Sequence record: OR352957
Length of the DNA stretch: 53,045 nt
Source: Escherichia phage AV127
Reading direction: 5' to 3' (one strand)
Shown here: positions 1-41,542 of the stretch, piece by piece
Numbering within the stretch: position 1 is the stretch's first letter
Layout of the letters: every line of letters starts with the position of its first letter
Translations under genes and position numbers: made by a program
Notes under the pieces: generated by a model
Database searches by the model: none
What the model saw: the letters and a program-made list of their open reading frames with translations, nothing else
What the model was told of the DNA's origin: nothing

Positions 1-227
1 GCGCAAAGTAAGGTATACAATTTCGGCAGTATCATTGTGTACAATTACGCTAATGTCAACGATGTCGCTGGTACGGAAGGTAACAAAGTGCTCTTCAATT
101 ACTTGTTCGTCGGTATTAGGGCTGACGCCCTGAAAGGTCTTGAGTGTGTGAAACATTGGTTGTATCTCCTTAGCAGAATATACGTCTATTATGTATATAA
201 AGGAGGGGAAAGTAAATAGATATAAAT
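1..227. repeat. Terminal redundancy copy 1, identical to 52819-53045; carries the 5' end of the minus-strand gene (1-156) and half of the divergent control region
   Basis: Read directly: bases 1-227 match 52819-53045 base for base. Confidence 0.9.
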
Positions 228-249
228 GTATAAAATACATAAAAGTCTA

Positions 250-279
250 TTTACTCTGGTTTAATAACGTGTATATAAT
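250..279 (+). promoter_or_regulatory. Sigma70-like promoter TTTACT-N18-TATAAT upstream of gene 310
   Basis: TTTACT 250-255, TATAAT 274-279; member of a recurring late promoter family. Confidence 0.45.
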
Positions 280-309
280 GAGAGCCCCACAAACAAGAGG
301 AGAGACTCA

Positions 310-642
310 ATGATAAAGCCAAAACTGTTGCGGCATATTCGCAACGGTATTAAGCTACTCGCTGAAGGCAATGAATATGCCTGCAAGCAACGCGGTATTA
401 CAAAAGTCGGCCTGTTCAATAAAGAGTTACCAACTCGCTACTTTACCAAATCACCACTAACACTCGTACCTGCAGCGGAGTATTATAAAGACCCCGAAGC
501 AGCCCGGGCTAAAATCAAGGAAGGTCTTGACCGACTTGTAGAGGAAGGCTATTTGACAGTACGTCAACACACTGAATCATCTTATTACTACAAGCCAACT
601 TCTAAGGTAACCAGCAATGACAATGACGAGTCAGCCGAGTGA
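310..642 (+). CDS. Hypothetical protein (110 aa)
   Basis: ORF with GAGGAG SD 7 nt upstream of ATG; first gene of the plus-strand block. Confidence 0.5.
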   Translation: MIKPKLLRHIRNGIKLLAEGNEYACKQRGITKVGLFNKELPTRYFTKSPLTLVPAAEYYKDPEAARAKIKEGLDRLVEEGYLTVRQHTESSYYYKPTSKVTSNDNDESAE

Positions 643-3151
643 TATTCTCGGTCTGAAATACTTTAAGCCAGAAGGGATTCCCCAAGTCTTCAAAGATATG
701 AAGCGCTGGGCTATCTTTGAGCTAACGTACGAAGACGAGACTCTTGAAGTTCAATCCAAACCGAAGAAACCTGCAAGAGCGCCATCAGGCCGTTCCTTCA
801 GCACAACAGTGCCTGAAGAGTGGATGACTTTCGACGACGCCCTGACACGTTGTATTCGCAATCGTGAAATGAAGATTAAAGCTGTACAGGGGAATATCAC
901 CTTTGTGCCGGCTTTGGTTGTTCCTCGCCAGTGGTACTTTGTCGACCTGGACAACCATGAAGATAACCCAGACATTGAAGCTACCCACAAAGCGATAATT
1001 GAAGGGACTCGTGGTGCTTATGCCGAGACGTCAATCTCTGGCAAAGGGCAACACATTGCAATCCCTTTACCCTGGACTGCGGCAACATCTAAAGAGAAAG
1101 ACGAACAGCTGGACATCAAAATCCAGAAGGCTGAGATGTTCCTGGTAATGACGGGTAACGTGTTGAGTGAGTTCAATGCTAATCCTGTTTCAGCCCGTGA
1201 ATGGCATGCAGCAATTGAGAAGTTCTTTCTTGAATCAAGCGCACCTGACATTGATGTTGAGTTTGAGCAAGACGAAGACCGTGGCGAAGAGTATGACAAA
1301 GAGCTGTACGAACAGCTAGCCGACAATACTCGCTGGGCTTTAGAACACTATCTGAACGAGCACGCACCCGACGGTGTTGGTGTGAGTAATGACGGTTCTG
1401 AACGTTTAAGCCGTATCTTAAAAGACTTGCTTCGTGTAACCCGTAACTATGAAGTTACACAACGCATCTTCATGGCCAGCAAAGCTGCAGCATACGAAGG
1501 TCGTCGTGCAAGCCGACATAACTTGTCTGTTGACAAGTACCATCAGTGGTTCAGTCGTGTTGGTAAGACTGTGCTGAAAGAGATGCAACGTGATGGCTTA
1601 TTCGTCAAGACCAAGTTTGCTCTTGACATCAACAAAGAGTTAACCAAGAATTCTGGTGTGTCACTGGCTGAGAACGTTGAGTTCAAAGTCAATGACGATA
1701 TTCTGCCATCTGACGTATTTGTCAGGACGGCCCCGTCCGGGTTTAAACGGCTTATTGCTGAGATACAGGATAACATATCTCCGGCTAACAGGGTTAACGA
1801 CTATGCAATTGGCACAGCTCTTAACATCCTGAGCAACTGCGCTGGTCGCAAGTATGTTTGTCCAGTAGGCGGTCATGCTAACTTCCTGGTAACCAACATA
1901 ATTCTTGTGGGTGGTTCATCAATCGGTAAATCGTTGTATACCGAAATGTTCCCACAAATCCAGGCAAGTTTACCTGATACATCACCTATCAGCCTTAATC
2001 GTATTCCAAGGGAGCAGACTTTTGCAACCAGGACGTTTGCTGAACTGATGTCAAACCCGTCATACCATTCAGTCCAGTTGTTCTATCCTGAGTTTGGTCT
2101 GGCTTTAGGTTCAGGCTTACGCATGAATCCTAACAACCCGGACAACTTTCAGAAAGCTCTGATGGACGCTTCAACCAAGCGTAAGGTTGGTGGTATACTG
2201 ACAGGTATCAAACGTGCTAATGCTGACAATGATGTTAAGACAGTAAGCGAACCGTGCTACTCTATCCTGGGCGACTCAACTCAAGAGCTTATTCTTGACA
2301 ACACCCGCAAACAAGACTTCTCAAGTGGCTTTTTGCCCCGCTTCCTGTTCATCCCGAACTATGAGCGAGCGGAGTTTGCCAAACCTGAGAAAGTAGGACG
2401 TCGCCAGCAGATTCGCCGTACATCCTTTTCAAAGGAGCTGATTGAGAAGCTGGAAGCAATCGCTTATGTGAATGCTATCCCGCCTAACGGTAAATTAAGG
2501 CACGACCCGATTCCTATTTACGACGAATCGGATGATGATGACTTCCTGTACGAATACCAGTGCAACATTAATGACATGCGCCAGTATTACAGGGACAACG
2601 AAGTAGCATCCGCCTTTGTGGGCCGAATGGGTGAGTATGTATTCAACATAGCAGCACTGATTGGCTTACTCGACAACTGGGATGCTCCTGTAATGACCAG
2701 GGACAACATCGAATGGGCTTACAAATACGTTCTTCGTTGTATAACCGCCTGGGTCAATAACACAAGCAGGATAGTAGCACCACCAACTACCAACGCCGAA
2801 GTAGTTGATGGCTTCCTCAAAGTCTACAGGGACATTTTGGCCCTTTACACCAAAAGAGGATGGTCTGGCATAGTCAAGCATTATCCTGAGGGTGTTGTGA
2901 GAAGTATCCGAGAAGAACACCTCCAGATGAATGGTTTAAGCATATATGCTATTCGTCAGTCTTTGAGCTGGTTTAAATCAAATTACGGTTTTAATATCAC
3001 AGCTAATAATAAAGTCATTGACGGAATGCTACAGGACATGATTGACCAGGACTATTTAGCGGTTCAAGTATATAAGCCCACAAGAGGCCGAACTGCTAAC
3101 ATTTACTGCCTGACAGAGCGAGGATATGACACTGCTAAGAAACTAAAATAA
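617..3151 (+). CDS. Primase-polymerase (AEP-type) fused to SF3/D5-like helicase
   Basis: 844 aa; FVDLDN acidic motif in N-terminal half; Walker A GGSSIGKS mid-protein; start uncertain (overlaps previous ORF). Confidence 0.6.
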   Translation: MTMTSQPSDILGLKYFKPEGIPQVFKDMKRWAIFELTYEDETLEVQSKPKKPARAPSGRSFSTTVPEEWMTFDDALTRCIRNREMKIKAVQGNITFVPALVVPRQWYFVDLDNHEDNPDIEATHKAIIEGTRGAYAETSISGKGQHIAIPLPWTAATSKEKDEQLDIKIQKAEMFLVMTGNVLSEFNANPVSAREWHAAIEKFFLESSAPDIDVEFEQDEDRGEEYDKELYEQLADNTRWALEHYLNEHAPDGVGVSNDGSERLSRILKDLLRVTRNYEVTQRIFMASKAAAYEGRRASRHNLSVDKYHQWFSRVGKTVLKEMQRDGLFVKTKFALDINKELTKNSGVSLAENVEFKVNDDILPSDVFVRTAPSGFKRLIAEIQDNISPANRVNDYAIGTALNILSNCAGRKYVCPVGGHANFLVTNIILVGGSSIGKSLYTEMFPQIQASLPDTSPISLNRIPREQTFATRTFAELMSNPSYHSVQLFYPEFGLALGSGLRMNPNNPDNFQKALMDASTKRKVGGILTGIKRANADNDVKTVSEPCYSILGDSTQELILDNTRKQDFSSGFLPRFLFIPNYERAEFAKPEKVGRRQQIRRTSFSKELIEKLEAIAYVNAIPPNGKLRHDPIPIYDESDDDDFLYEYQCNINDMRQYYRDNEVASAFVGRMGEYVFNIAALIGLLDNWDAPVMTRDNIEWAYKYVLRCITAWVNNTSRIVAPPTTNAEVVDGFLKVYRDILALYTKRGWSGIVKHYPEGVVRSIREEHLQMNGLSIYAIRQSLSWFKSNYGFNITANNKVIDGMLQDMIDQDYLAVQVYKPTRGRTANIYCLTERGYDTAKKLK

Positions 3152-3162
3152 GTAAGTAAATC

Positions 3163-3204
3163 AAGGGCTTGGGTAATTGTAAAAATCCTAAGCCCTTATT
3201 TTTT
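3163..3204 (+). terminator. Rho-independent terminator after primase-helicase gene
   Basis: AAGGGCTT...AAGCCCTT stem followed by ATTTTTT. Confidence 0.6.
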
Positions 3205-3370
3205 AAGCTTATTTTACAAACTGATTAATATTTAAACTATAATTAAATATATGGGCGATAAGAGTATGATTTTATTACTCTTTTACTAGTCATAATATAT
3301 GGCCTCGATAAATAAAAATAAAGGGGGTAATAAGGGGATACAAGTACCGGATAAAAGGGGGTATATATTT

Positions 3371-3402
3371 ATTTATTATTATTATTATTATTATTTATTA
3401 TT
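3371..3402. repeat. (ATT)n microsatellite in AT-rich intergenic region
   Basis: Read directly: about 10 ATT units with one interruption. Confidence 0.85.
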
Positions 3403-3653
3403 AATTATATTAGAAGTAATAAAAACAGCTACTTAGAGGCGTCTATATGTATGATCCGGTTTATCTCTTTATTAATATCAGAACCGGATGAAAAAAATTT
3501 ACGCCGGTGAAAAATAATAAAAAACCGGACTGATAAATAATTCGTAGGCATGTCTAAAGCCAGGCGTGGCAAGCTTCGGTGATATTTACTATGTTATTGT
3601 ATGTTAGTGTGCGTTATAATATATTTATTATTCAACAGATGAGTTGTGCAACT

Positions 3654-4090
3654 ATGAATCCAATTGTAAAAGTATTTGAAGGTAAAAATATCACATTTTC
3701 ATCAATTAATAGAGGAACCAAAATGGTTCCCCTCATTGTTGTTAAAGGAAGCGATTTAGCTAAAGCGCTAGGTTACAGTCACTCGAAAAAAAACTTTATA
3801 AAAGGTTAGACAGCGATTATAAAATTACTGACGACAAAGGAACAGTATGGGTAACTGAACCAGGTATTTATCAGGCTATATTCGGTTCACATCTTGAATC
3901 AGCTAAAGCATTTCAGCGCTGGGCGTACGAAGAAGTATTCCCAACCATTCGTGGGAATGGTTATTACGTTACACCAGAGCTTCAACCAGCGCTGGATCTA
4001 CTGTCTGATGAAATAGACTTACTCCGTGCGTATGCTACAGCTGACTGTCACGGAAGAGCAAGGCTTAAGTCAAGAATTATGACAGTATGA
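3654..4090 (+). pseudogene. Bro-N domain (antirepressor-like) gene interrupted by a -1 frame change inside an A8 homopolymer (3786-3793)
   Basis: Frame 0 reads ...DLAKALGYSHSKK then stops at 3807; frame -1 continues ...LYKRLDSDYKITDDKGTVWVTEPGIYQAIFGS...AKAFQRWAYEEVFPTIRGNGYYV to stop 4088-4090; together a typical Bro-N domain. Confidence 0.55.
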
Positions 4091-4155
4091 AAAAAACAAG
4101 TAGAAAATGGTAACTCTTTGGACCGCGTAGTCCAGATTTTAAAAGGAAACAGTGC

Positions 4156-4587
4156 ATGGTAAATATTAGAGCGAAGGGCCAAAACTTTGAGCGTAAAATG
4201 GCTAAAAAATTTAATAGCTCGTTCGGATTAACTGTTGAGCGCAATCTTCAACAGTCTATTAATGGCGGGGATGACTTGTTGGGTGTGCCGTTTTTCAGCG
4301 TTGAACTGAAGAAGCACAATACCAAGTCTATCGGAACATGGTGGAGACAGTGTGCGGCATCGGCAAAGGCTCAGAACAAGATGCCAGTGCTTATATACGA
4401 ACTACCAAGAAAACAGCCTACCGTGGTGATGAATAAGGCTGATGTGATTGACTGCTTTCCAAGTGGCACGACTTTTAACGAGGCATCAAATCGCCTCTTT
4501 GTGGGTCTAGTAGAATTAACATGGGAACAATTTTGCCGGGTCTACAACTATTACGTTGCGCCCGGCACTCAGTATCATGTCAATTAA
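4156..4587 (+). CDS. Putative T7 endonuclease I-like Holliday junction resolvase
   Basis: 143 aa; GGDDLLGVPFFSVELKK resembles the PDFLLPNGIFVETK catalytic D...ExK segment of T7 gp3 (recalled, not searched). Confidence 0.4.
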   Translation: MVNIRAKGQNFERKMAKKFNSSFGLTVERNLQQSINGGDDLLGVPFFSVELKKHNTKSIGTWWRQCAASAKAQNKMPVLIYELPRKQPTVVMNKADVIDCFPSGTTFNEASNRLFVGLVELTWEQFCRVYNYYVAPGTQYHVN

Positions 4588-4769
4588 TCTTGTTTCAGCT
4601 CGTCGCAAATAACACGCTGATTTTTGGCAGGTATAATGCCAAGATTTAGCAAGGTGTATGGACTATCGGCGGCACATTGTTCAACGGTAGTCCATTCAGG
4701 TTTGGATTCAACAATTTTGTAACTACAATCATGAGTAGCCACACATGTTGCCAGGATTAAGCCAATCAC
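4584..4769 (-). CDS. Hypothetical small protein (61 aa)
   Basis: ORF track; hydrophobic N-terminus; convergent with 4156-4587. Confidence 0.3.
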   Translation of the reverse strand: MIGLILATCVATHDCSYKIVESKPEWTTVEQCAADSPYTLLNLGIIPAKNQRVICDELKQD

Positions 4770-4944
4770 AAGTAATCACCTTCAACCAGGAACTCAAACA
4801 ACTGGTTGTAAACGTTGCAACCTTTAGCGAAAGAACTTTCAGCAGGTTTACCATCGCGGACGATCATCATATACTCACCGCCATGGATGTCCACCCAGTA
4901 TTGCATGCCACCTTTGACCGGATTACGTTGTAAGAATTTAAACA

Positions 4945-5190
4945 TTATTTGCTCCTTATTCCAAGTTTATTCAATAACCAAATTGTCATGTCAACCCATG
5001 TTAACGGTACAGTTTTCGGGGGTTGATAATCCCAGCAGCTTGCAGTTCTTTGTATTTCTGCTTGGCGCCGCTCCGCTTCGCGTAATACCGCATCGTCAGA
5101 AGTGCCGGCAGAAAAAAGATCGGTAACACCAGATAAATCGCGTTGATTAACACGTCGAGCAATGTCATATAAATCATCCTTAGAAAACAT
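4945..5190 (-). CDS. Hypothetical protein (81 aa)
   Basis: ORF track. Confidence 0.35.
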   Translation of the reverse strand: MFSKDDLYDIARRVNQRDLSGVTDLFSAGTSDDAVLREAERRQAEIQRTASCWDYQPPKTVPLTWVDMTIWLLNKLGIRSK

Positions 5191-5417
5191 AAGCCAATAC
5201 CATAAGAATTATCAGAAAGATCCCAACCAGCTTCCTTATAGCCCGACCTTCAGCATATGCAGGATTCACAACAGAATACTCAACAACATGTTTACAGCGG
5301 ACCATAAGGCCTCCACTTGTGGGTTAATTCAATCATGAGGACTTTTGGCAAATCCTCATTGTTGAATCAATTACCAGCTTTTAATCAAGCCCTGTCAGTA
5401 TCAGGACTTGATTAATA

Positions 5418-5621
5418 TCACTCTATCATTACCTGAACTACTATTATACACTCTTTATTGAAGCGGGTAAACACTTTTCCACCATTGGTGCGTTTAGCCC
5501 CTGCTTTTAGAGCTGACTGGCACCAGATCTGCCACTCCTCAACTGTCAAGAATTTTTGCTCAGCTTTGGGTGGCAATCCATTGGCAAGGTCTACCGTAGT
5601 AAATTTGACTAGTGGCATCAC
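5418..5621 (-). CDS. Hypothetical protein (67 aa)
   Basis: ORF track; 4-nt overlap with upstream ORF suggests coupling. Confidence 0.35.
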   Translation of the reverse strand: MMPLVKFTTVDLANGLPPKAEQKFLTVEEWQIWCQSALKAGAKRTNGGKVFTRFNKECIIVVQVMIE

Positions 5622-6007
5622 TTGACCTCAAATTTTGACTCGTCATATTCCGGATCAGTCACGTCCCGGGTCGCACAATTTTTGATTGCCTCCCAGTAAC
5701 GTTGGGCATCATCGCCATCGACATAAACTGTCCAGTGGCCGTAACCACCTTCAAATCTGTCCCAGGCTTGTTCCCAGACTTTGCCATCTTCCAGCTTGTA
5801 CCAAGTTGGACGACTGTCAAACTCGCGGATTGGATGGTACCCCATCAAAGGATTCATTAGGTCAATAATGTCTTCCCGACTAATCTCCTGGTTCTCCCAC
5901 AACACCATCATGAATTGCTCAAACTTGAAGGCGTTTGGCAGAACTTTGAGGACTTCACCATCACGATATACGGTATAGGTGCCATCTTCGCATTTTGCAC
6001 TATACAT
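5618..6007 (-). CDS. Hypothetical protein (129 aa)
   Basis: ORF track; W/Y/E-rich. Confidence 0.45.
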   Translation of the reverse strand: MYSAKCEDGTYTVYRDGEVLKVLPNAFKFEQFMMVLWENQEISREDIIDLMNPLMGYHPIREFDSRPTWYKLEDGKVWEQAWDRFEGGYGHWTVYVDGDDAQRYWEAIKNCATRDVTDPEYDESKFEVK

Positions 6008-6073
6008 GTTTCTCTCTCCTGTTGATTGTGAATAATTTCAATTGATGGCACTACTTGAGTGCCATCTCAAAAA

Positions 6074-6640
6074 TTACTCAGTTTCTTGTTCTTCAATTTC
6101 AGGTTTTTCTTCAGCTTCAGGTTTTTTGCCTGTTACTGATTTGCCGTCAGTCACTTTACCAGATTTTACATCATTACGGTAGTATGACATATATGATTGG
6201 ACAACACGTTTTGCCCTAATATCATCCGCTTCCATCCCACAGGCTTTCATGGCATCAGCCAGCGCCAATTTGGAATCTTCTTTGTCCATCAAATTGTAAT
6301 CCTTGAATACTGCATAGCAGGTATCTTTGGTTGACGGACCGGATGAAGTTTTGCGGGTGCCACCTGCAGATGCACGTGATGCCGCAACTTTGACCTCTTC
6401 AACTTCCAGTTGGTTAAGCTCATCAAATAGGGCTTTCACCAGCACTTCTTTTGAGTCTTTGACACTTACAGAACTTTCATCATTAAGGGACTTGATCATC
6501 TTAATGATTTGGTTATTGGCAAAGTACTGCAGGCTATCCATCTGCACTACAATAGTCCCAAGGCTTTCAGTAGTCAGACCAGATTTTACAGACTCGACAG
6601 AAAAGGCGGAAGTCAGGTAAACGTAGTTAGTAGCAGTCAT
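6074..6640 (-). CDS. Hypothetical protein (188 aa), acidic C-terminal tail
   Basis: ORF track. Confidence 0.45.
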   Translation of the reverse strand: MTATNYVYLTSAFSVESVKSGLTTESLGTIVVQMDSLQYFANNQIIKMIKSLNDESSVSVKDSKEVLVKALFDELNQLEVEEVKVAASRASAGGTRKTSSGPSTKDTCYAVFKDYNLMDKEDSKLALADAMKACGMEADDIRAKRVVQSYMSYYRNDVKSGKVTDGKSVTGKKPEAEEKPEIEEQETE

Positions 6641-6735
6641 TTTGATGTATCCTCGTCAATAGAATTTTGGTAAGCGCCAATCCCTGGCAAGTAAGTCCAA
6701 ACATGACAACTTTTGTCAAGCTGTCATGATTGAAA

Positions 6736-6915
6736 TCACTTCAATTTGTTAAGTATTTTGGTCAATAGCTCAACTCTTTCTTCCTGGTCAGTAGGGTCAA
6801 AGTTTTCAATTGACTCCTTCCAGTCCTCCAGCAGTTCCTTTTCATTAAATATTGAAATGTCAAGAAATTCAACCAATAACTCAACTTCTTTTTTAGTCAG
6901 TTTCAAATCTTTCAT
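6736..6915 (-). CDS. Small K/E-rich protein (59 aa), missing from the ORF track because it is under 60 aa
   Basis: Hand translation of minus strand: MKDLKLTKKEVELLVEFLDISIFNEKELLEDWKESIENFDPTDQEERVELLTKILNKLK. Confidence 0.35.
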   Translation of the reverse strand: MKDLKLTKKEVELLVEFLDISIFNEKELLEDWKESIENFDPTDQEERVELLTKILNKLK

Positions 6916-6929
6916 CTTGTATGACCCTC

Positions 6930-7079
6930 TTACCCTTGATATTTGACTACTTGCGACTGGATGAAATCAACACAATCTTCCACGTCCATTGATTCAAAGT
7001 CTGGGACTGGTCCATTATTAATGTTGACACACCATAGCCCTTCATTACAATCATACCAAAGCGCGTAGTTGTCTTTCAT
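6930..7079 (-). CDS. Hypothetical small protein (internal ATG start of ORF 6930-7133)
   Basis: AGGAGT SD precedes the internal ATG (MKDNYALWYDCNEG...). Confidence 0.35.
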   Translation of the reverse strand: MKDNYALWYDCNEGLWCVNINNGPVPDFESMDVEDCVDFIQSQVVKYQG

Positions 7080-7296
7080 AATAGTTACTCCTGCTATTAG
7101 TTTCCAGGCGTGGCTACTGCTTCCAATAGCCACTAGTTGAAACTATTACCAGCGTTACTATCAACAAGAAACATGTTACCAAATTGTTAAAGAGCGGTCT
7201 GGTACTATTCGACCAGGTAAAGTTATTATTTGCGCATCTTGACGACGCGCGCCAGACAAGACGCTTGACACATTCATCATTCGTCTTGATGTAATA

Positions 7297-7325
7297 ATTA
7301 TAGGCCAGTCAATCAATGTTGTACA
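7297..7325 (-). promoter_or_regulatory. Sigma70-like promoter TGTACA-N17-TATAAT driving the leftward small-ORF island
   Basis: Minus-strand hexamers read from plus 7320-7325 and 7297-7302. Confidence 0.35.
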
Positions 7326-7370
7326 TAAAAGAATTGCAAGTTTATGCAAGTTTTTAGAAATGATAATCAC

Positions 7371-7889
7371 TTGCGATTGAGAGTGGTTCTCGTATGCAAT
7401 TGATATAGTTTCGCATGTAATTACTCAATCCAAAATGGTCGGCAGGGGTTATAATCACATAGGGGTGCCACTTAAAGGAGCCGGCGAAATTATTTCTAAA
7501 AATATAATTTCAATCTGAATTATAGACGCTTTATGTTATAACGGCCGAAGTAGTTCATACGGTAATTGTATCAATCGCAATAGTTACCATAGTAATCATT
7601 TCAATCGAAATAGGTGCGGCGGGGGGTAATTTCGCAAGGGTGCTACCTGCCAGGAGCCAGCAAAATTTTTTATTTTTTTCTCTATTTTCTCCTTATCAGT
7701 ACCAATCATCATCAGATTGATACGACAGGAGCTAACCTTTTGCCTAACACAATAATAAGTGAAGCCCCTCTAAAATTTTTTTATATTTTTCGGAAATTGT
7801 GTAGACACTCACTAAAAAGTGGTGTACTTTCTCTCCTCCACGCGCTATCATTAATGTGAATCATCAAACGGCCTCACGGTCTCCTACTT
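7371..7889. promoter_or_regulatory. Repeat-rich divergent intergenic region: two ~57-bp direct repeats (7440-7497, 7618-7670) and at least five TCAATYGMAAT-like motifs
   Basis: Read directly; repeats share CGGCRGGGG...GGGTGC...AGGAGCCRGCRAAATT. Confidence 0.5.
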
Positions 7890-8384
7890 GTGGGTAACAT
7901 TATGAAAATTGTTCAATTAGAGCCATATCCGCCTCAATTGGCTATCGTTTGTAGCGAAAAAGAGCACGAAGAGCTCCAAAAACTGATGGATTTGCCTGAT
8001 TTTGGCAACTGGAATGACCGGGAAACGCGTAATGCATCTACCTTTACATTCTCTCGCGTTAACTATCCGTACCTGTTAATCGTCGTCGAACTGTACCACC
8101 CGGACGACCTGAAGTACAACACCATTTCCCACGAAGGCATTCACGTAATGTCGTCGCTGATGAACTATGTAGGACTTAAATACGACCCAGAAAACGACGA
8201 ATGGTACGCATATCAGCATGATTTCATCGTAAATGCCATTTGTAAGGCCCATGATGAGTACCTGGAGCGCAAAAAAGCGCCAAAAACTAAGCCAAAAATC
8301 GAAACAGGTAACCATCCTGCTATACTGCCACAAGACGTTATGAACTCGCTTTTGACTGACACTACTGGGGACTTTTTTAGGTGA
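7890..8384 (+). CDS. Hypothetical protein with HEGIH (HExxH-like) motif
   Basis: ORF track; GTG at 7890 or ATG at 7902, weak SD. Confidence 0.4.
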   Translation: MGNIMKIVQLEPYPPQLAIVCSEKEHEELQKLMDLPDFGNWNDRETRNASTFTFSRVNYPYLLIVVELYHPDDLKYNTISHEGIHVMSSLMNYVGLKYDPENDEWYAYQHDFIVNAICKAHDEYLERKKAPKTKPKIETGNHPAILPQDVMNSLLTDTTGDFFR

Positions 8385-9055
8385 TTAATATTATCTTTGC
8401 AATGGGCCAAAATGGGGAATTCGGGTTATCTCCGGAGTTTATGAAGCATCAGGTTGACTCGTGTAAGACCATGGAAGAGGTTCGTGCGCTTCCTAAGTCG
8501 GGTTTGCCCTGGAAGTGTCCGTCAGATATGCTCTTTTTCAGGACTATGACTAATTCAATTGCGACAGAACCAGGCTATAATGCATATCAGCAACTACGGG
8601 GACAATTCCCGAGCGACCAGTTGCGAAACATGATAGCTGATGTAACGGTAAAAATGGTAGGGCATAGTGTATTGTTAGCCGGTCGTAACACGTATATGAC
8701 TATGAGTCTGCCTATGTCAGCCCACAGAATACTGCTGCCGGTATCTCGACAGATTATGGCTTCAGAAGGCTACAATAATCTGGGTGAGATGGCAGCAGAC
8801 CTTGAGTCCAGAGGTACTGACGTCTGGATTGTAGGCGGTGCCGAGTTGATACTTTCGGCCCTTGAAGAGCATGCAAAAGACTTACTCCGTATCGACAACA
8901 TGTTTATCAGTACAATTAAGCAATCAGGTCCAAGTGATATTTTAATGGATCGTAGCAAATTAATGATGTACATTGATAGCGACTTTACATATAATGATGA
9001 ATATGTTGATAACAAACAAGTTCTGATACAACGATACAGGAGTTTACACAAATGA
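8381..9055 (+). CDS. Dihydrofolate reductase-like protein
   Basis: MINIIFAMGQNGEFG...LPW...GRNTY...IVGGAEL matches DHFR layout; GTG start overlaps upstream stop. Confidence 0.55.
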   Translation: MINIIFAMGQNGEFGLSPEFMKHQVDSCKTMEEVRALPKSGLPWKCPSDMLFFRTMTNSIATEPGYNAYQQLRGQFPSDQLRNMIADVTVKMVGHSVLLAGRNTYMTMSLPMSAHRILLPVSRQIMASEGYNNLGEMAADLESRGTDVWIVGGAELILSALEEHAKDLLRIDNMFISTIKQSGPSDILMDRSKLMMYIDSDFTYNDEYVDNKQVLIQRYRSLHK

Positions 9056-10723: not shown

Positions 10724-11014
10724 ATGGCAAAACCGAAAAAAACCCGTGAGGCAACAGAAGAACTGTTGGCCACGATGCGACGTATCCAGCTGGACCCGTT
10801 GGAAGTTATGCAACGAGCTATCATCCTTGCTGAACGTGAAGACGACTATAAAGCAATGATGGATGGTGCACTGGGCGTTATGCCGTACATGTATCCTAAG
10901 CTGAAAGAGTCCGTTGTCAAAGCAGACATCGACCAGAACTTGTCTGGTAACGGCGTCAACCTGAATATTACAATCGGTGACCAGAAAGTGGTAGATACTA
11001 CTGGGGAAGAGTAA
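10724..11014 (+). CDS. Putative terminase small subunit
   Basis: 96-aa basic N-terminus protein immediately upstream of terminase large subunit. Confidence 0.4.
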   Translation: MAKPKKTREATEELLATMRRIQLDPLEVMQRAIILAEREDDYKAMMDGALGVMPYMYPKLKESVVKADIDQNLSGNGVNLNITIGDQKVVDTTGEE

Positions 11015-11017
11015 TAA

Positions 11018-12466
11018 ATGAATCTTGACTTTCACCTGCATGACAGACAAGGTGCCGCTCTGCAGTCTCAGGCAACTGAGATTCTGTACGGTGGCGCCGC
11101 TGGTGGTGGTAAGTCTCACCTTATGCGGGTAATGTCGATTATCATGTGCTGCATGATACCTGACTTGCAGATTTACCTTTTCCGCCGAAACTATAACGAC
11201 CTTACGGCTAACCACATGGTTGGTCCCACAAGTTATCCTGCCTTGCTGGACGGTATGTGCAAAGCTGGCAAGTGCAAGATTAACTACTCGAGCAACACGA
11301 TTAAATTCTGGAATGGTGCGAACATCAAACTCTGTCACCTCCAGTACGAAAAAGATATTTATACCTACCAGGGTGCGGAGATTCACGTTCTGCTGATGGA
11401 TGAGCTTACTCACTTCACAGAAACGATGTACCGCTTCTTGCGTAACCGTGTCCGACTCGGTGCTCTCAAAGTCCCTGAGAACTTTTTCCGGCCTCTGCCA
11501 CTCATCTTTTGTGGGTCAAACCCCGGTGGTGTAGGTCACAACTGGGTTAAGCGTACTTTCGTAACTGCTGCTCCTCCGATGAAAATCGTTAAGCAGGAAA
11601 AACGCGAAGGTGGTATGGCGCGTCAGTACATACCAGCTAAGATGACTGATAACCCTACGTTGATGGAAAACGACCCTGATTACGGCGACCGTCTTGAAGG
11701 TCTTGGTGACCCGGCTCTTGTTGCGGCGATGAAAGAGGGTGACTGGGATATTGTTGCTGGTGGTGCGCTTGACGACGTATGGTCAACCAAGTGTATTCTG
11801 CCGCGTATGCGTATTCCTAAAGGCTGGACTATCGAACGTTCTCTTGACTGGGGTTCTACTCACCCGTTCTCTGTTGGTATCTGGGCTATCGCAAATGGTG
11901 CGTCGCTTACAGACGACGAAGGCAATGAGTACTTTATTCCGCGTGGTTCCATTATACGTATAGCTGAATGGTATGGGTGCTCTGAAAAAGAAGCTAACAG
12001 GGGCATTAAGTTATCTGCTGCCGAAGTCGCTCAAGGTGTTCTTCGCCTACAGGAAAATCTGCAAGCTGGTGGCTGGATTCAAAGCAACGTTAATCCTGGT
12101 CCGGCTGATAGTCAAATTTATGCGTGCAAGGAAAAAGACGTTGAGACTATCGCGAAGAAAATGGAAGACGAAGGCGTAACCTGGGTCAAGGCCGACAAGT
12201 CACAAGGTTCGAGAATAAATGGCTTAGAGCTATTCCGTCAGCTTCTGAAAAATGTTAAGATGGACGAAACGGAAAAGCCGGGCATTTATTTCATGGAAAA
12301 CTGTCCAGCAGCCATAAACACGTTGCCGGTTCTGCCGCGTGACAAGAACAACACGGAAGATGTCGACACGAACTCTGAAGACCACGTATACGATGACTGT
12401 CGTTACATGGTGTTGCGTGGCATCAACCGTTATACTACCAAGCTCAAAATAAATATGGGACGGTAA
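11018..12466 (+). CDS. terL: Terminase large subunit
   Basis: 482 aa; Walker A GGAAGGGKSH near N-terminus; sits directly before portal. Confidence 0.8.
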   Translation: MNLDFHLHDRQGAALQSQATEILYGGAAGGGKSHLMRVMSIIMCCMIPDLQIYLFRRNYNDLTANHMVGPTSYPALLDGMCKAGKCKINYSSNTIKFWNGANIKLCHLQYEKDIYTYQGAEIHVLLMDELTHFTETMYRFLRNRVRLGALKVPENFFRPLPLIFCGSNPGGVGHNWVKRTFVTAAPPMKIVKQEKREGGMARQYIPAKMTDNPTLMENDPDYGDRLEGLGDPALVAAMKEGDWDIVAGGALDDVWSTKCILPRMRIPKGWTIERSLDWGSTHPFSVGIWAIANGASLTDDEGNEYFIPRGSIIRIAEWYGCSEKEANRGIKLSAAEVAQGVLRLQENLQAGGWIQSNVNPGPADSQIYACKEKDVETIAKKMEDEGVTWVKADKSQGSRINGLELFRQLLKNVKMDETEKPGIYFMENCPAAINTLPVLPRDKNNTEDVDTNSEDHVYDDCRYMVLRGINRYTTKLKINMGR

Positions 12467-25487: not shown

Positions 25488-25910
25488 ATGATCATCGATT
25501 CTTCTGAATGCGTGTTGAGCCTGAATGGTGTTCAGCTGTCCGACTGGGCAGACGGTGCCGATGTCATTGACGTGCAATGGGTGGACCCAGCTTCCACCTA
25601 TCTTGCAGGTGCAGATGGCAATGGCATTCAGATTATGAACCCGTCCAAAGCNNCTATCAAGGTTAAGCAAAATGGTCCGGATGCCAAATGGCTTAACGAC
25701 CAGTACAACCTGCAGCGTAACAACATTCGTGGATTTGTCCCGTTTGTGCTGCAAGCCAAAGACCTGCTAAACCAGGATTTGGCATGGGGCAAAAAAGGTT
25801 ACTTTACCGATGGTTCCCCGTGGACTCGCGGTAACGGCCATAACCCGACTACCTTCGCTATTGTGTTCCACCAAGGTGGTATGCAGTTGACTGAAGGCTT
25901 TGACCAGTAA
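25488..25910 (+). CDS. Putative tail tube protein (contains 2-nt N gap at 25651-25652)
   Basis: 140 aa after sheath-like gene. Confidence 0.5.
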   Translation: MIIDSSECVLSLNGVQLSDWADGADVIDVQWVDPASTYLAGADGNGIQIMNPSKXXIKVKQNGPDAKWLNDQYNLQRNNIRGFVPFVLQAKDLLNQDLAWGKKGYFTDGSPWTRGNGHNPTTFAIVFHQGGMQLTEGFDQ

Positions 25911-29095: not shown

Positions 29096-29511
29096 TGATA
29101 TTTACCACAACNNNNNNNNNNNNNNNNNNNNNNNNNNNNNNNNNNNNNNNNNNNNNNNNNNNNNNNNNNNNTATTTACGACTTGGAACCTACCTCCGAAG
29201 GTAAGCAATCAATATCAATTTCTACCGCTGGATATACGTATAACATTGAGTTGTACTATAACACGGTAGGTCAGCTCTGGCAGGCTACAGTGACTGACAT
29301 ATCAAGTAATGCTGTACTTTGTTCCAGTTATGCTTTACAATATGGGCGTATTGCTTTTGGTAACTGGGACACGCGTATAGCGTTGCTGGTAAGTGACAAA
29401 TCCTCCAGCCGCATCGGTCCTATGACTACAGATGACATGGGAGGACGTTGCAGTGTCTACATCGTCGACAAAACAGCCTACCCGTCAGTTTGGCCGCGCG
29501 TTAAAGCTTGA
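29095..29511 (+). CDS. Hypothetical tail protein interrupted by 60-nt N gap
   Basis: ORF track; N-run 29112-29171 makes frame and length unreliable. Confidence 0.3.
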   Translation: MIFTTXXXXXXXXXXXXXXXXXXXXXIYDLEPTSEGKQSISISTAGYTYNIELYYNTVGQLWQATVTDISSNAVLCSSYALQYGRIAFGNWDTRIALLVSDKSSSRIGPMTTDDMGGRCSVYIVDKTAYPSVWPRVKA

Positions 29512-40559: not shown

Positions 40560-41542
40560 TTATACGGCCATTTGGAGTTTGATGTTTGGCATTGGTTTGT
40601 ACTTCTCAACCATTGGCGCAACATCGGTAGGAGTGAAGTCAAATACTGACACGTCATAAATCGCGTTAATGTCAGGACGACCTTCAAAGTTAGTGTCCAG
40701 TGTAGTATCAGAATTGCTTACGATACGTTGCAGGAAAATCTTTGCCGCATCGATATGATTCTGATAGATGTGATAGTCACCCAACGTAACAGTCATATCA
40801 CCTACCCCAGTACCCAGCTCAGCAGCAATGGTAATCTGCAGCATTTGATGCAACAGAATATCGTGAGGCAGACCCAGAATAACATCCGCGCTACGCATGT
40901 GGAACATCAGCTCTAATTCATTACGGTTGTTAATGAACAGCTGAAAACCATGGTAACAAGGCGGAAGGGCCATGGCGTCCATCTCTTGTGGGTTCCACGC
41001 CGTAATGTACGCCCTGCGGTCAGTAGGCTTAACCTTCAGCGTTTCAATAACATCTTTAAGCTGGTTAGTAAGAACACCATTCTTATAGAAAGGCTTAATC
41101 CATTGCACGCCGTATACCGGACCTAAGTCACGGTTGTCTGGTGTACCCCAACGTTTGTTTGCATCCTGCAGGTTACCTTCCCACCAGTTGCAGCCAAAGC
41201 CTTTGAGCGTGTCGACGTTTGAAATGCCGTTGATAAAGCAGTAAAGCTCAGCAGCAACAGCTTTGATGTTAACAGGTTTAAACACCGGCACCATCAGTTT
41301 GTTGTCGTTGAAAGCCAGTTTAAACGCTGTACCAAAACAACGGCGGGTNNNNNNNNNNNNNNNNNNNNNNNNNNNNNNNNNNNNNNNNNNNNNNNNNNNN
41401 NNNNNNNNNNNNNNNNNNNNNNNNNNNNNNNNNNNNNNNNNNNNNNACCAACACCTGTACGGTCTACAACATCCTCACCTTTACGCAGGATAAAAGAAAT
41501 GATGTCGCTGTAAAGAGAATCGACAGTGCTGTATGTTTTCAT
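40560..41542 (-). CDS. Thymidylate-synthase-fold pyrimidine C5-modifying enzyme, predicted dCMP-directed; interrupted by 98-nt N gap
   Basis: DRTGVG, LGPVYGVQW, DRRAYITAWNPQEMDAMALPPCYHGFQ; Asp in GLPHDILL where ThyA has Asn (GLPFNIAS). Confidence 0.65.

Follow-up and report, generated by a model that had tools for sequence, protein, structure and literature searches.

Conserved duplicated elements at the predicted right boundary of a long direct terminal repeat in Escherichia phage AV127

The non-coding DNA at positions 7371–7889 of Escherichia phage AV127 (OR352957) is probably the junction between the right edge of a long direct terminal repeat and the unique part of the genome. Two related G-rich elements of ~85 bp lie in this region, and the second would hold the cut site that generates the right terminus. 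In this reading AV127 has a Rosemountvirus-type (BP63-like) genome whose long direct terminal repeat was collapsed to a single copy in the assembly, and we place the probability of the two propositions together at roughly 0.7. The window referred to below is the whole stretch of AV127 DNA that was analysed (53,045 nt, one strand).

Element 1 (7414–7495, plus strand) is the copy internal to the repeat. It is made up of GTCGGC, a run of G, GGGGTGC and a palindromic core, GCC/GGCGAAA (7480–7489; a slash marks a cut, actual or predicted, or in element 1 the corresponding point of the core). Element 2 (7588–7671, plus strand) is the boundary copy. It has a GGGGGG run at 7621–7626, the only such run in the window, followed by GGGTGC and the core GCC/AGCAAAA (7656–7665); the predicted right-terminus cut, GGAGCC/AGCAAAA, falls between 7658 and 7659. 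The initial annotation had described two direct repeats of ~57 bp, and their existence is borne out: the pattern CGGCRGGGG-N(8–20)-GGGTGC occurs at 7440 and 7617 and nowhere else in the 53 kb, and in none of 100 shuffles. The repeats are longer than had been proposed, as the local alignment spans ~85 columns (7414–7495 to 7588–7671) with a score of 40, compared with 13.9 ± 2.3 for shuffled sequences (0 of 1000 as high), and the two copies share a 3′ block, AGGAGCCRGCRAAA, at 7476 and 7652.

The degenerate core GCCRGYRAAA has three matches in the 53 kb, all on the plus strand: (i) 3503, at the predicted left end of the repeat; (ii) 7480, in element 1 and (iii) 7656, in element 2. Its consensus is the palindrome GCC/GGC, with the cut in the middle and an A/T tract after it, and a centrally cut palindrome fits a symmetric terminase nuclease, which would leave blunt ends. 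The palindrome is imperfect in AV127, where the right core is GCCAGC and the left core GCCGGT.

Ends have been determined for three phages of this family, one per clade (fHy-Eco03, AEV23 and vB_SalM_Sz), and the determinations agree at the nucleotide level. The ends of fHy-Eco03 were found by PhageTerm and confirmed with restriction digests, with a repeat of 3,699 bp (PMC8145870); its record carries a repeat_region at 1–3699 annotated 'left terminal repeat region', and the AV127 query aligned over the right edge of that feature. The right repeat end of this phage is ...TTTAAGCCCC/GGCAAATTTTTT, inside its own element 2, and the left repeat end is ...GTTATTGCC/GGCGCAAAAAG (in short form ...TTGCC/GGCGCAAAAA). 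The record of vB_SalM_Sz (Rosemountvirus; linear, 57,020 bp) has an exact terminal duplication of 4,263 bp. Here the right end is ...CCTGCCAGGAGCC/AGCGGAATTTTT (short form ...CCAGGAGCC/AGCGGAATTTTT), also inside element 2, and the left end is ...TTTACGCT/GGCGAAAAAAAT (short form ...ACGCT/GGCGAAAAAA). For AEV23 (Loughboroughvirus), the PhageTerm repeat is 3,915 bp (PMC12918118), and the distance from the left core (/GGCGGAAAATTT) to the element 2 core (GCGCC/GACGG) is exactly 3,915 bp. In the AEV23 record, phage sequence gives way to foreign E. coli/IS5 DNA precisely at the left core, the pattern that mis-joining of a physical DNA end would produce. The DNA concerned, ~1.7 kb at the left physical end (OR810919.1, 1–1744), is E. 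coli-like, encodes an IS5 transposase and a methyltransferase, and is probably an assembly chimera rather than phage sequence.

The right repeat end thus lies inside element 2, to the nucleotide, in 3 of 3 phages with determined ends, at GCC/RRC followed by an A/T tract, and the left repeat end in these phages lies at GCC/GGCG. Assemblies of LPSEYT (at 7665), PEA2-3 (~3517) and AEV23 (~3513) were opened no more than 12 nt from the boundaries. Placed by homology to fHy-Eco03, vB_SalM_Sz and AEV23, through which its coincidence with a physical virion end is also drawn, the repeat of AV127 would occupy 3506–7658 (4,153 bp), with cuts between 3505 and 3506 and between 7658 and 7659. This segment stands once in the collapsed assembly and would be present twice in virion DNA. 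Related sequence, GCCRGYRAAA, is found at both of its boundaries, and the left and right cores align across clades. About a dozen genes lie inside the repeat. The product of one of them (4156–4587) matches the Pfam family PF24608, 'Phage putative PDDEXK endonuclease' (E 7e-18), and is annotated in relatives as a RusA-like resolvase; a junction-processing nuclease encoded there may have a bearing on how the repeat is duplicated.

About 45 Rosemountvirus genomes, including BP63, UPF_BP2, SPLA2 and the 'Witcher' phages, are 95–98% identical to AV127 over this region. Nucleotide identity is 71–77% both to Loughboroughvirus (ZCSE2, S144, SE4 and AEV23) and to a third clade, clade C, comprising fHy-Eco03, vB_SE1_KM, KE25/26 and Erwinia SOI901. 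The protein encoded by the adjoining gene (7902–8384) is only 37–41% identical in amino-acid sequence to its counterparts in the third clade, whereas the non-coding DNA beside it retains 71–77% nucleotide identity, indicating an unusually strong constraint on the non-coding DNA. An origin of the elements in the host was considered and discarded, as E. coli chromosomes carry no copies. The sole matches there are two E. coli 'plasmid' records of ~53 kb (NZ_CP067310.1, 53,474 bp, and NZ_JBVNBN010000003.1, 52,771 bp) with 94–95% identity to the region; these evidently represent Rosemountvirus genomes that were assembled along with their host, whether from a carrier state or from contamination. A scan of IMG/VR with the protein neighbouring the region returned already known phages only. 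Runs of N at 25652–25653, 29112–29171 and 41349–41446 (160 bases in total) indicate that the AV127 record is itself an assembly with gaps or masked stretches.

Elements 1 and 2 are present in all 18 related loci that we aligned, which represent all three clades (Rosemountvirus, Loughboroughvirus and the fHy-Eco03 clade), with SPHG1 as a partial exception; with the same exception, the elements and the left core are conserved in three clades among the relatives that share the terminase. In SPHG1 (MW413353.1, a 47-kb record) a rearrangement has removed the 5′ part of element 1. The left intergenic part of that record appears inverted or rearranged at ~5200–5560, with a breakpoint inside element 1 right before GGGGTGCC, and may reflect either a real rearrangement or a misassembly. 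Across the 18 loci the two elements share a layout of a core-like hexamer, a G run with TA after it, and CAC and GGTG(C), followed in the 3′ part by an A/T-rich stretch, the core and an A/T tract. Element 1 is the better conserved of the two (60/35/65% invariant columns in successive 20-nt windows, compared with 35/25/55% for element 2), and its perfect core is near-invariant among relatives, vB_SE1_KM alone departing from it.

The spacing of the elements is also conserved. From core to core the distance is 175–177 bp in 12 of the 12 relatives measured, and 176 bp in AV127, although only 25–35% of the columns between the two cores are invariant. Three GTAAT/GCAAT motifs lie between the elements on the plus strand (7561–7596; at 7562, 7577 and 7592) with a spacing of 15–16 bp, and in the alignment their GTAAT/TAAT cores are kept in relatives and the spacers vary. 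Just outside the repeat, a T tract, TTTTTTATTTTTTT (7666–7679, plus strand), is kept in every clade and may represent bent DNA or a point where transcription stops at the boundary. The best core is that of element 1, but apparently no terminus is formed there in the three phages with mapped ends. We considered whether element 1 could be a fossil of a right-end/left-end junction and rejected the idea, since the likeness of its downstream flank to the left-end flank is significant in ZCSE2 alone (5 of 500 shuffles) and not in AV127 or SE13.

Most likely, then, the elements are cut and recognition sites of the packaging enzyme rather than small-RNA genes. Acting on concatemers, terminase would start the genome with a cut at the left core and finish it with a cut at the element 2 core, placing 3506–7658 at both ends of the virion DNA. 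The DNA would end with ...CCAGGAGCC (7658), and sequence from AGCAAAATTTTTT onward would be unique. The 250 bp upstream of the right cut contain element 1, the G runs and the GTAAT repeats, which together could constitute a terminase recognition or assembly platform, with terminase binding the G-rich part. By analogy with a pac or cosB-type site, this platform would direct the cut at element 2. The strong conservation and fixed spacing of its parts support a protein–DNA architecture; the binding protein, the packaging polarity and the role of element 1 are what we infer.

The enzyme expected to cut both boundaries is the terminase large subunit, encoded at 11018–12466 (plus strand). No small subunit was recognised in the window, and the small terminase of relatives outside the family has no homologue there; a 96-aa ORF at 10724–11014 is a candidate by position. 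The closest outside relatives of the terminase (Acinetobacter Bhz20 and Klebsiella K21lambda1) were set aside as a source of evidence on ends, their records having been re-opened at the small terminase gene.

At the left terminus, the core GCC/GGTGAAA (3503–3512, plus strand) would be cut between 3505 and 3506, as ACGCC/GGTGAAAA. It is flanked by A-rich tracts and by inverted repeats containing CCGG. The features that it has in common with the elements are the core and the A/T tracts; the G-rich upstream part is absent, which implies that the whole element is not needed for cutting at both ends. A search for a third full element copy upstream of the left terminus (3300–3420) yielded a single common 9-mer, GGGGGTAAT, at 3323 (182 bp upstream of the terminus), which is not significant. 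The DNA just outside the left terminus (3283–3505) is a conserved stretch of low GC content (22–27%). Its G runs comprise the 9-mer at 3323, GGGG at 3334 and GGGGG at 3357, and it also contains a (TTA)n/22-bp tandem array at 3362–3412, a repeat_region in several 'Witcher' phage records, and an inverted repeat, ATCCGGTT...AACCGGAT, at 3453–3490. This stretch could serve in unwinding or belong to a left-end packaging signal. On the other side of the cut, most relatives have a strong extended −10 promoter (GTAGACGTTTACA-17-TGnTACAAT) that lies ~45 nt after the left end and reads into the repeat. AV127 (3506–3660), birk and SPLA11 have a different sequence after the left end and an extra gene, annotated as an anti-repressor in SPLA11; the matching AV127 ORF seems shortened (3579–3809).

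The initial annotation had taken the region for a control region separating a leftward island from a rightward block, and had offered a regulator-binding array, a second iteron region or small-RNA genes as its content. The first part stands. Leftward ORFs end near 7133–7370, the rightward block starts at 7902, and the DNA between them is conserved and non-coding, as would fit divergent promoters serving leftward genes inside the repeat and rightward genes outside it. Two mechanical ORFs, 7176–7370 (minus strand) and 7614–7859 (plus strand), were rejected as genes, as the relatives have indels of 7 nt and 20 nt in these stretches. The interpretation of the elements themselves was mostly wrong: element 2 is a nucleotide-exact repeat end in three relatives and its core recurs at the left end.

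The alternative that survives best makes the region an array of regulator-binding sites amid divergent promoters. A DNA-binding protein of the phage or the host would recognise the TGCRRTTGAKA/TCAATCG motifs, and possibly the ~85-bp elements too, and in this way control the early operons on either side, leftward and rightward. We regard this as possible though on balance improbable as an account of the region. All five of the TCAATCG-type motifs noted initially are present, within a few bases of their reported positions. TCAATCGMAAT has four matches in the 53 kb when up to one mismatch is allowed, three of them inside 7370–7611. A refined motif, TGCRRTTGAKA, has three perfect matches in the window, all in the region and in both orientations (7372 and 7395 on the plus strand, 7569 on the minus strand). 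The pair at 7372 and 7395 is conserved in every clade. The copies at 7571 and 7601 are mostly limited to Rosemountvirus, which weakens the case for an array; KE26 of clade C keeps the motif at 7571 with one mismatch.

The two family-wide motifs (7372–7382 and 7395–7405) lie in the most conserved non-coding block (7320–7419; 60–80% invariant columns among 8 diverse phages), together with a tandem TGCAAGTTTA repeat at 7335–7353. They are 50–80 bp from a candidate sigma-70 promoter for the leftward early genes (7297–7325, minus strand; TGTACA-17-TATAAT), which was identified by promoter scan and alignment and whose TTGTACA −35 region is invariant in relatives. The TCAATCG-type motifs plausibly belong to this divergent promoter region, and candidate functions for the block are a regulator or host-factor site or a part of the packaging signal. 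For the motifs and the promoter-like blocks, then, regulation is possible; what it leaves unexplained is that element 2 is the genome end in three phages and that its core recurs at the other end, and no regulator gene has been identified. As an explanation for 7320–7419 it is compatible with the packaging reading, which it partly complements and does not truly oppose.

On the rightward side, the DNA upstream of the gene block is conserved in the alignment at 7761–7851 (plus strand), with an A/T tract at 7773–7791 like that after element 2. A block at 7801–7855 is invariant in all clades and occurs once in the window; it includes GTAGACA (7801–7807), TAAAAAGTGGTGTACTTT (7813–7830) and GCTATCATTA. 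Within it we read a candidate promoter, TGTACT (7823–7828)-17-TATCAT (7846–7851), which the consensus scan did not call. The stretch GAAGCCCCTCTAAAATTTTTTTATATTTTTC (7761–7791), ~110 bp beyond the repeat and kept in every clade, resembles the core and T tract of element 2 (repeat D2, 89% over 19 nt). It may be a third core in degenerate form, or else an UP-like element belonging to the rightward promoter. The first rightward gene (7902–8384, plus strand) encodes a 160-aa protein of phrog_1365 (function unknown), annotated as 'putative Ku protein' in S144, for which a Pfam search gave no match. Its fHy-Eco03 homologue was found in virions by mass spectrometry, according to a note in the record. 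In JEP7 a homing endonuclease gene (6572–6988) that is absent in AV127 directly follows the first rightward gene.

A more elaborate form of the packaging reading treats the two elements as a two-site device, with the invariant element 1 and its perfect GCCGGC core as the true recognition or loading site and the cut placed a fixed 175–177 bp downstream at the more variable element 2. We consider this doubtful. The distance would correspond to about one wrap of DNA around an oligomeric small terminase, and what sets the right boundary would then be a distance measured from the recognition site, not just the sequence that is cut. In a variant of this scheme, element 1 would serve as an alternative terminus in part of the virion population.

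A replication origin within or coextensive with the region, built on short iterated motifs (the GTAAT cores and the TGCRRTTGA repeats) and A/T tracts at a point of divergent transcription, seems to us unlikely. Regularly spaced, conserved motifs are present (three 5-nt GTAAT/GCAAT cores at 15–16 bp), as are A/T tracts, and the cumulative GC skew has its minimum at ~7,000–8,400. That minimum falls where gene orientation switches, however, and the skew simply tracks the direction of the genes. No initiator gene lies next to the region, by-eye reading of the region for the IHF and DnaA-box consensus sequences gave no match, and the coincidence with the termini would go unexplained. The elements themselves, being just two copies 176 bp apart, do not make a second iteron region. 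An origin function could coexist with the packaging function.

It is equally unlikely that element 2 and its T tract act mainly as a transcription stop or insulator at the boundary, blocking rightward read-through from the repeat into the unique region. The T7 concatemer junction has an RNA polymerase pause signal, which is a loose precedent, TTTTTTATTTTTTT right after the core is conserved, and a weak stem is possible. That stem, which encloses over 30 nt, is not conserved, however; there is no canonical short GC-rich hairpin, the terminator scan was negative, and the part of the repeat upstream of the element yielded no rightward promoter.

Small-RNA genes or structured RNA motifs, with a GTCGGC/GCCGGC-type stem and the T tract after element 2 as terminator, are very unlikely: the element 1 consensus does fold (GTCGGC...GCCGGC; alifold −9.7 compared with −2.1 for column shuffles), the T tract is present in all clades and a perfect 7-bp stem (GCCGGGG/CCCCGGC) exists in element 2 of fHy-Eco03, but in clade C a G-to-A change with no compensation disrupts the element 1 stem, the element 2 consensus fold energy is close to zero (−0.18 and −1.7 kcal/mol), neither element, on either strand, folds better as a single sequence than its shuffles do (z +0.3 to +0.5), Rfam gave no credible match (best E-value 0.24, far below the gathering score), ARAGORN found no tRNA or tmRNA, the terminator scan was empty and no convincing upstream promoter was found.

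Sequence-defined ends are a known property of phages with exact terminal repeats, and the repeat in relatives has already been published. The passages on the repeat in the fHy-Eco03 and AEV23 papers give its length alone and make no mention of a cut-site motif, of a duplicated element or of the presence of the same sites in the many family genomes deposited without the repeat (PMC8145870, PMC12918118). Our literature search found no description of a GCC/GGC core shared by both boundaries, of a duplicated ~85-bp element at fixed spacing, or of the possibility of predicting ends in collapsed family assemblies from them. Both the core common to the cut sites and the element duplication appear to be undescribed.

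These features have a practical use. Most of the ~60 deposited Rosemountvirus, Loughboroughvirus and related genomes are collapsed and arbitrarily opened, without the terminal repeat of ~3.7–4.8 kb, and many of these phages have been proposed for biocontrol of Salmonella or E. coli. With the left core (GCC/GGYG plus an A tract) and the right core in element 2 (SCC/RRC plus AAATTTTTT), ends and repeat length become predictable from sequence, giving predicted repeats of 4,153 bp for AV127, 4,108 bp for ZCSE2 and 4,770 bp for birk. Such predictions would be useful for genome rebooting and engineering and for the correct dosage of the dozen repeat genes. The region also offers a candidate, testable packaging signal for a myovirus with a long terminal repeat, including a second copy that is strongly conserved and keeps a constant distance. 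To our knowledge, the cutting and duplication of long exact terminal repeats are poorly understood outside T7 and T3.

The closest known systems include fHy-Eco03, AEV23 and vB_SalM_Sz, which belong to the same phage family and have boundaries homologous at nucleotide resolution. Other parallels are found in two-part sites bound by the small terminase: in SPP1, pacL and pacR flank pacC, and in lambda, cosB and cosQ lie around cosN. As in those sites, the AV127 region has repeated sequences at a fixed distance from the cut, A/T tracts suited to bending and a partly symmetric cut. SPP1 and lambda are headful and cos systems, respectively, whereas AV127 is predicted to have an exact terminal repeat, and in it neither a small terminase was identified nor an IHF-type site seen. 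In Kayvirus and other Twort-like Staphylococcus phages, short repeats bracket the borders of long terminal repeats. AV127 similarly has conserved short sequences at both borders of its predicted multi-kilobase terminal repeat, but sequence, host and phage lineage are all different.

In T7 and T3, the concatemer junction carries pacC cut sites and a pacB recognition site, and the terminal repeats are 160–230 bp of non-coding DNA. The predicted AV127 repeat differs in being ~4.15 kb long with about a dozen genes, and in having a GCC/GGC palindrome at the core of the cut site together with a duplicated ~85-bp G-rich element; similarity in sequence to the T7 and T3 sites was not seen. The organisation is nonetheless alike. 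In both cases the direct terminal repeat has sequence-defined ends on both sides with mutually related cut sites at the boundaries, conserved non-coding DNA beside a boundary provides a candidate recognition site, and the terminase large subunit is encoded nearby.
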